A stretch of 55,493 nt of DNA, from IMG/VR virus record IMGVR_UViG_2663763400_000006. One strand, given 5' to 3'. The translations under genes and the position numbers were made by a program. Source of the stretch: a virus. Its lineage: Duplodnaviria; Heunggongvirae; Uroviricota; Caudoviricetes. The notes below the pieces were generated by a model. That model was not told where the DNA came from, did not search any database, and was given only the letters and a program-made list of their open reading frames with translations. Of this stretch, positions 23,513-25,313 are shown piece after piece; position 1 is the stretch's first letter; the number at the start of each line of letters is the position of its first letter.

Positions 23513-23715
23513 CGCGACAGGAAGAACTTGCCGCTGCCCGTGCGGCACTGCATGACCTGATGACAGGTAAACGGGTGGCAACAGTACAGAAAGACGGACG
23601 AAGGGTGAAGTTTACGGCCACTTCCGTGTCTGACCTGAAAAAATATATTGCAGAGCTGGAAGTGCAGACCGGCATGACACAGCGACGCAGGGGACCTGCA
23701 GTATTTTATGTATGA
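23509..23715 (+). CDS. W: Head-tail joining protein W
   Basis: 68 aa, matches lambda W as recalled. Confidence 0.9.
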
Positions 23716-25313
23716 AAACGCCCACCATTCCCACCCTACTGGGACCGGACGGCATGACATCGCTGCGCGAATATGCCGGTTATCACGGCGGTGGCAGCGG
23801 ATTTGGTGGGCAGTTGCGGGCGTGGAATCCACCGAGTGAAAGTGTGGATGCAGCCCTGCTGCCCAACTTTACCCGTGGCAATGCCCGCGCGGACGATCTG
23901 GTACGCAATAACGGCTATGCTGCCAACGCCATCCAGCTGCATCAGGATCATATCGTCGGGTCTTTTTTCCGGCTCAGTCATCGCCCAAGCTGGCGCTATC
24001 TGGGCATCGGGGAGGAAGAAGCCCGTGCCTTTTCCCGCGAGGTTGAAGCGGCATGGAAAGAGTTTGCCGAGGACGACTGTTGCTGCATTGACGTTGAGCG
24101 AAAACGCACGTTCACCATGATGATTCGGGAAGGTGTGGCCATGCATGCCTTTAACGGTGAACTGTTCGTTCAGGCCACCTGAGATACCAGCCCGTCGCGA
24201 CTGTTCCGGACACAGTTCCGGATGGTCAGTCCGAAGCGTATCAGCAACCCGAACAATACCGGCGACAGCCGGAACTGCCGTGCCGGTGTGCAGATTAATG
24301 ACAGCGGCGCGGCGCTGGGATATTACGTCAGCGAGGACGGCTATCCTGGCTGGATGCCGCAGAAATGGACATGGATACCCCGTGAGTTACCCGGCGGGCG
24401 CGCCTCGTTCATTCACGTTTTTGAACCCGTGGAGGACGGACAGACCCGCGGTGCAAATGTGTTTTACAGCGTGATGGAGCAGATGAAGATGCTCGACACG
24501 CTGCAGAACACGCAGCTGCAGAGCGCCATTGTGAAGGCGATGTATGCCGCCACCATTGAGAGTGAGCTGGATACGCAGTCAGCGATGGATTTTATTCTGG
24601 GTGCGAACAGTCAGGAGCAGCGGGAAAGGCTGACGGGCTGGATTGGTGAAATTGCCGCGTATTACGCCGCAGCACCGGTCCGTCTGGGAGGCGCAAAAGT
24701 GCCGCACCTGATGCCGGGTGACTCACTGAACCTGCAGACGGCTCAGGACACGGATAACGGCTACTCCGTGTTTGAGCAGTCACTGCTGCGGTATATCGCT
24801 GCCGGACTGGGTGTCTCGTATGAGCAGCTTTCCCGGAATTACGCCCAGATGAGCTACTCCACGGCACGGGCCAGCGCGAACGAGTCGTGGGCGCACTTTA
24901 TGGGGCGGCGAAAATTCGTCGCATCCCGTCAGGCGAGCCAGATGTTTCTGTGCTGGCTGGAAGAGGCCATCGTTCGCCGCGTGGTGACGTTACCTTCAAA
25001 AGCGCGCTTCAGTTTTCAGGAAGCCCGCAGTGCCTGGGGGAACTGCGACTGGATAGGCTCCGGTCGTATGGCCATCGATGGTCTGAAAGAAGTTCAGGAA
25101 GCGGTGATGCTGATAGAAGCCGGACTGAGCACCTACGAGAAAGAGTGCGCAAAACGCGGCGACGACTATCAGGAAATTTTTGCCCAGCAGGTCCGTGAAA
25201 CGATGGAGCGCCGCGCGGCCGGTCTTAAACCGCCCGCCTGGGCGGCTGCGGCATTTGAATCCGGGCTGCGACAATCAACAGAGGAGGAGGAGAGTGACAG
25301 CAGAGCTGCGTAA
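23712..25313 (+). pseudogene. B: Portal protein B interrupted by an in-frame TGA stop
   Basis: ORFs 23712..24182 and 24222..25313 are in the same frame and together match lambda portal B; the codon for Trp in ...FVQATW DTS... reads TGA here (stop at 24180..24182 per ORF track). Confidence 0.8.

Follow-up and report, generated by a model that had tools for sequence, protein, structure and literature searches.

A nonsense mutation in the portal gene of a lambdoid Escherichia coli prophage that carries an embedded satellite

Defective (cryptic) lambdoid prophages bearing point mutations, such as DLP12, Rac and Qin, are familiar in Escherichia coli, and the cryptic prophages of strain K-12 are heavily deleted. 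The classical nonsense mutants of lambda gene B provide another precedent, in which an essential head gene is inactivated by a nonsense mutation. A third kind of described element is the composite formed by a helper prophage and a helper-embedded PICI (HE-PICI). Such composites, with the satellite at site E:Phage_cap_E:80 and a 10-bp identity block, were described in 201 instances by Tommasini, Mageeney and Williams in 2023 (PMC10111431). Many of the helpers appear degraded and their satellites were called "potentially abandoned" (PMC10111431).

The window analysed here, a stretch of 55,493 nucleotides, comprises a lambdoid prophage of full length, located at argU/intD (the DLP12 site). It resembles the cryptic lambdoid prophages in being an argU/intD lambdoid prophage that is inherited vertically and acquires further lesions, which differ between descendants, and it resembles the lambda B mutants in the type of lesion and the gene affected. 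In contrast to the K-12 cryptic prophages, it is full length, and its decay is at a very early stage, with one shared irreversible lesion. The satellite embedded in its capsid gene E has the layout of the HE-PICI composites of PMC10111431. [quoted passage not shown] The difference is that the portal of the window helper is knocked out, which fits the "potentially abandoned HE-PICI" of PMC10111431. Moreover, the window satellite carries a Nu1-like terS gene, whereas 11capE of PMC10111431 has no terS.

The portal gene and its premature stop codon

The positions of the main features are collected in Table 1. The portal gene occupies the slot expected in the head module, with the order nu1-A-W-B-C-D-E. 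A sequence-only reading of this DNA had proposed that two open reading frames in the same frame jointly match lambda portal B. This is borne out, as both halves match PF05136 (Phage_portal_2), the first over profile positions 2-119 and the second over 133-354 of 354. Once the Trp codon is restored, a full-length family match is obtained in the profile search (PF05136 positions 2-354, E = 1e-96), and residues 1-533 of the protein can be aligned with solved structures of lambda gpB (8k38, 8xot and others). The amino acid identity with PDB 8k38 is 99% and the nucleotide identity with lambda gene B is 97.6%.

Table 1. Positions in the window of the portal gene, its neighbours and the embedded satellite
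Feature	Position	Strand	Details and basis
Intact helper genes nu1, A (large terminase) and W, preceding the portal gene	21067..23715	+	ORFs, sibling annotation
Portal pseudogene, lambda-B-type	23712..25313	+	534 codons, one internal stop; translation, PF05136, lambda B identity
N-terminal ORF	23712..24182	+	156 aa, wing domain in part only
Premature TGA, codon 157	24180..24182	+	TGG (Trp157) in relatives
C-terminal ORF from Met171	24222..25313	+	363 aa
Helper C (S49 protease/scaffold) and D (decoration), intact	25294..26955	+	
Helper E, 5′ fragment	27011..27256	+	82 codons, ends at attL core
attL core	27246..27255		AGCCGAAGCA
Helper-embedded PICI satellite	27256..38133	+	10.9 kb
attR core and helper E, 3′ fragment	38134..38924	+	core AGCCGAAGCA at 38134..38143
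J (tail-tip)	47239..50719	+	split near 49732 by 1-nt insertion or hybrid junction

In the translation of 23712..25313, the context of the stop reads ELFVQAT-stop-DTSPSRLFRTQFRMVSPK. ACC TGA GAT in the window stands against ACC TGG GAT in lambda (J02459) and in the closest relatives; TGG was read directly at codon 157 in lambda and at two related loci (L002 and L005). As compared to the nearest TGG alleles, those of strains 2016C-3878 and FDAARGOS_1268, the window portal gene differs at only 2 of 1602 nucleotides, G471A (W157 to stop) and G1385A (R462Q; lambda also has this residue). Trp157 is kept in 27 of 28 homologues sharing 60-89% identity. The earlier claim of a single-base TGG-to-TGA lesion at a conserved tryptophan thus agrees with the nearest alleles, with lambda and with the family at large. 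Because the lesion is one deterministic base change in an otherwise near-identical gene, chance is not at issue.

In the cryo-EM structure of gpB, the wing comprises residues 24-249 and 368-452, the stem residues 250-279 and 343-367, the clip residues 280-342 and the crown residues 453-511 (PMC10721106). The 156-residue product is a wing fragment with no channel-forming part, and PF05136 is cut by the stop near position 120 of 354. An uninterrupted frame for wing, stem, clip and crown is absent; with its stop at codon 157, the gene is therefore classed as a pseudogene, a non-functional member of its family. The next in-frame start is Met171, whose ATG lies 40 nt past the stop, within a predicted hairpin. 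No Shine-Dalgarno-like motif was seen in the sequence upstream of Met171, and expression of the C-terminal ORF appears doubtful. A product initiated at Met171 would be devoid of residues 24-170. In addition, residues 157-170, which include Trp157 and the invariant F165, T167 and F169, are missing from both pieces. A restart at Met171, giving a portal in two pieces, was ruled out on these two grounds, the lack of a Shine-Dalgarno-like motif and the loss of the conserved 157-170 stretch. From the extent of the truncation, we infer that the allele would be null or near-null, with loss of portal function.

A 61-bp probe centred on the stop was searched against 5426 complete E. coli genomes. A 100% match was found in exactly four of them, FDAARGOS_1296, GN06489, GN06758 and N68, which originate in different projects and were sequenced independently. 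The other 26 matches among those listed showed one mismatch (98.4% identity). The exact 156-aa product was found on 239 public contigs (519 index blocks) and the exact 363-aa product on 197 contigs; the contigs were drawn from NCBI, ENA, JGI and Logan and include those of the KTE59 and KTE65 draft genomes. Whatever the locus examined, the base A of the TGA was observed (11 of 11). The window sequence matches none of the 11 compared TGA loci exactly and thus represents a further independent assembly. RefSeq labels the gene "phage portal protein, pseudogene, internal stop" in the three TGA genomes opened. The NCBI pipeline thus already marks the lesion as a pseudogene, and nonsense mutations are commonplace in the structural genes of prophages.

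The sequence-only reading had posed the alternative of a real inactivating mutation or a sequencing error and had suggested a comparison with sibling genomes. If the lesion were an error of sequencing or assembly, the true base would be G. Single-base differences are the commonest kind of error, and the sibling assemblies at L008, L011 and L012 clearly contain indel errors. However, the lesion is a substitution and no homopolymer indel, the identical A stands in four complete genomes from different laboratories and at every locus examined, and the exact truncated product recurs on 239 contigs of several sources. An error shared by so many independent assemblies is hardly conceivable and was rejected. 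On the strength of these assemblies, the TGG-to-TGA stop is regarded as a genuine, inherited mutation.

The satellite in gene E and its helper

The annotation and Pfam matches of the satellite comprise int, alpA, an icd-like gene, a DUF4222 gene, a D5-type primase and an SSB gene, followed in our inventory by genes for an E-like capsid protein, a D-like decoration protein, an AlpA-like HTH protein and a Nu1-like terS. By the same means, no portal, large-terminase or protease/scaffold gene was seen in the satellite. The satellite copy of cos (36393..36465) contains the lambda cohesive-end sequence GGGCGGCGACCT; the helper cos is located at about 20846..20918. The E′-int junction was found in 175 of the 5426 complete E. 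coli genomes. The exact satellite variant was found, among complete genomes, only in the four that carry the TGA (100% identity as rounded, over 10.9 kb). Gene content and boundaries identify the insertion in E as a helper-embedded PICI, an element of a published kind, which occupies its usual 10-bp site. The interruption of E had been taken as a sign of decay, a view that is not borne out: the element is an HE-PICI at its normal att site, a configuration published in 2023 (PMC10111431), and comparison with a TGA locus (L010, below) shows the insertion to be reversible. Satellites decay too: in FDAARGOS_1296, IS66 lies within the satellite primase gene (L001 28950..31538), and in XJ6.1 the satellite integrase gene has an internal stop (L023 6740..7975).

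One TGA locus, L010 (GCA_964040015.1), has an E region identical to unoccupied E, as seen when its restored E (13505..13574) is compared with window positions 27226..27285 and 38104..38163. Thirty-five shared derived sites, made up of a 33-site tract and two single SNPs, place L010 within the island-bearing clade. These derived features (SNP 23702T, the 33-SNP tract and 42892G) are common to the window, FDAARGOS_1296 and L010, and 23702T, the V-G tract and 42892G are absent from GN06489, N68 and the outgroups. The same island is present in both TGA subclades. The 33 SNPs are clustered over about 900 bp in the tail genes V-G (40931..41834), a tract with the appearance of a patch recombined in from a different lambdoid prophage. 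Because L010 is nested within the island-bearing clade, its island was lost by precise excision. As established by comparison only, in L010, precise excision restores helper E. From these sequence comparisons, the satellite evidently still excises though the portal of its helper would be dead. This phylogenetic evidence for precise satellite excision in a portal-dead composite is a small new point. The composite provides an example, dated by phylogeny, of an HE satellite that is deprived of its resident helper's portal and is evidently still able to excise.

A helper without portal also strands the satellite, which does not encode a portal itself, unless the protein comes from another helper or from rare UGA readthrough. 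The prophage is the attachment site of the satellite and no longer its vehicle, and mobilisation of the satellite by a resident helper carrying the portal stop is expected to fail. The suggestion that the helper may persist merely to serve the island as a platform is not a valid conclusion, because the island is itself devoid of a portal gene and a portal-less helper cannot package it. Nor was any evidence of selection found. Five other island-bearing helpers keep intact portals. Indeed, nu1, A, W, B, C and D are all intact in the five other satellite-bearing helpers opened, and portal loss as a general trait of such helpers was accordingly rejected. Among complete genomes, no intermediate genotype was found, be it a TGG portal gene accompanied by exactly this island variant or a portal allele differing from that of the window by 1 nt. 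Strain FDAARGOS_1268 was considered as a witness that the island came first and was rejected, as its island is a different variant. No second close portal copy was found in the four TGA genomes. A distant-mode search returned one or two distant lambda-family portal homologues per TGA genome, with 60-80% nucleotide identity. It is possible that these homologues, in FDAARGOS_1296, GN06489, GN06758 and N68, represent alternative helpers for the stranded satellite.

Origin of the stop and possible residual function

We consider it very probable that the locus reflects a spontaneous nonsense mutation in the portal gene, inherited vertically, as part of ordinary early prophage decay in one clone. 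Events of this type also gave rise to the cryptic lambdoid prophages of K-12. A spontaneous G-to-A transition at the third position of codon 157, turning TGG (Trp) into TGA, would have inactivated the portal and would then have been passed down in a single E. coli clone. With translation ending after 156 residues, part of the wing would be made and the stem, clip, tunnel loop and crown of the dodecameric DNA channel would be lost. The induced prophage would still replicate and lyse its host, and packaging-competent proheads would not be built. Drift or hitch-hiking may have brought the allele to fixation, since a prophage that is passed on vertically experiences little selection, in the short term, for remaining infectious. 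The satellite embedded in it would be stranded as well, yet could excise. For annotation, the value of these results is that the lesion is settled as real and the capsid-gene "disruption" as a known, reversible satellite insertion. They may also be of use in predicting inducibility or transduction potential in a clinical E. coli clone.

Two features close to the stop could be taken to indicate that the gene is still expressed in full, namely a predicted hairpin directly 3′ of the UGA (MFE -28.1 kcal/mol, z = -2.3), as expected for programmed recoding by selenocysteine or frameshift bypass, and the in-frame ATG downstream, as needed for a functional portal in two pieces. However, no Rfam family matched near the stop at E up to 10 and no SECIS element was found. 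In the search for a UGA-suppressor tRNA, which covered the 55-kb window, no tRNA gene was found. The sequence around the TGA agrees with that of the TGG relatives, the nearest other clade-specific changes being 574 nt upstream and 914 nt downstream. As the stop is the only clade-specific change in its vicinity, the hairpin has remained unchanged alongside it and shows no adaptation to it. Frameshifting would be of no help since both ORFs share one frame, and a two-piece portal is contradicted by the absence of residues 157-170 from either piece. Selenocysteine insertion and other recoding were rejected on the lack of an Rfam match, of a tRNA gene in the window and of adapted flanks, and the chance that recoding or a two-piece portal operates here is negligible. 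Low-level readthrough deserves more attention. UGA is the leakiest stop codon in E. coli, it is decoded almost always as Trp, and a G at position +4 weakens termination (PMC11126739). In K-12, readthrough of premature TGA reporters averaged about 0.5% at 37 C and was higher at low temperature; the frequent errors at TGA in this strain were ascribed to an inefficient RF2 allele (PMC11126739). A competition model for readthrough has been presented (PMC10570021), and 12 copies of gpB suffice per head (PMC10721106). In the window, the stop context is TGA G and the ancestral residue is Trp. Since UGA is read as Trp, every readthrough event would yield wild-type gpB. W-to-UGA is thus the one type of nonsense mutation that natural readthrough would repair exactly, which is a small new point. 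The allele could then be leaky, near-cognate tRNA-Trp reading the UGA at a low rate, so that the composite would be severely attenuated and not dead, with rare helper or satellite particles possible. Against this, natural isolates with an efficient RF2 are expected to show less UGA readthrough than K-12, assembly of the dodecamer is concentration-dependent and the flanks of the stop show no sequence adaptation. The locus shares with natural tRNA-Trp readthrough in E. coli a UGA followed by G at a former Trp codon; it differs in showing no sign of use or selection, the stop being recent and the sequence otherwise unchanged. Overall, a leaky allele is unlikely. Somewhat less likely again is that the UGA-G acts as a throttle and no kill switch, with wild-type portal well under a few percent and rare particles actually released. 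If so, these particles would perhaps be mostly satellite, using its own capsid and small terminase together with scarce helper portal.

It may also be asked whether inactivation was adaptive, the stop having been selected by the host, as a means of disarming the prophage, or in a conflict between satellite and helper. In favour of this, the allele has reached hundreds of assemblies and portal knock-outs recur in other lineages. However, near-identical loci indicate that clonal descent explains the spread. The host would gain little because, as known from lambda biology, a portal knock-out does not stop induction or lysis. As for a conflict, the stop harms the satellite, itself without portal, and each of the five other satellite-bearing helpers opened has kept its portal. 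An adaptive origin is therefore very unlikely.

Other lesions and cargo of the prophage

Across the regions compared, the clade shares a single irreversible lesion, the portal stop. The frameshift in J reported by the sequence-only reading is indeed present, near 49732, but it is private to the window genome: the junction occurs in no complete genome, and GN06489 has an intact J, which carries an in-frame deletion of 84 nt shortly after the position of the window break. The window J break looks like a hybrid junction of two J allele types, and the stretch near 49732 seems recombination-prone. Other members of the clade carry lesions of their own, a frameshift in H beside the IS66 in the island primase in FDAARGOS_1296 and a frameshift in O in N68. 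Some of the private lesions of siblings could be assembly errors. One shared old lesion accompanied by differing private ones is the pattern predicted by continuing neutral decay.

An independent portal allele was found in another lambdoid prophage lineage, where a frameshift leaves products of 147 aa and 390 aa (210 contigs, KTE73). This allele implies that portal knock-outs are not rare. At the loci that carry it (L016-L019, e.g. L018 10001..11603), the G chaperone gene is also split. One of them, L017, has an HE-PICI in E; the other members do not.

Several minor observations concern the remainder of the prophage. The iss/bor region has four window-private SNPs in 82 bp (19957..20038), reflecting either a small patch of gene conversion or a fault of assembly at this place. 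Two cargo genes in reverse orientation separate Q from the holin gene (15848..18240, minus strand); one encodes a protein of 404 aa that has no match in Pfam or PADLOC, and the other a 391-aa protein of the NA37 (nucleoid-associated) family. The two genes may constitute a moron or a defence pair not yet described. In the early region, a gene on the minus strand (5537..6400) encodes a DUF7946 and DUF7947 protein that weakly matches the PADLOC candidate system PDC-S42 (E = 1.5e-4).
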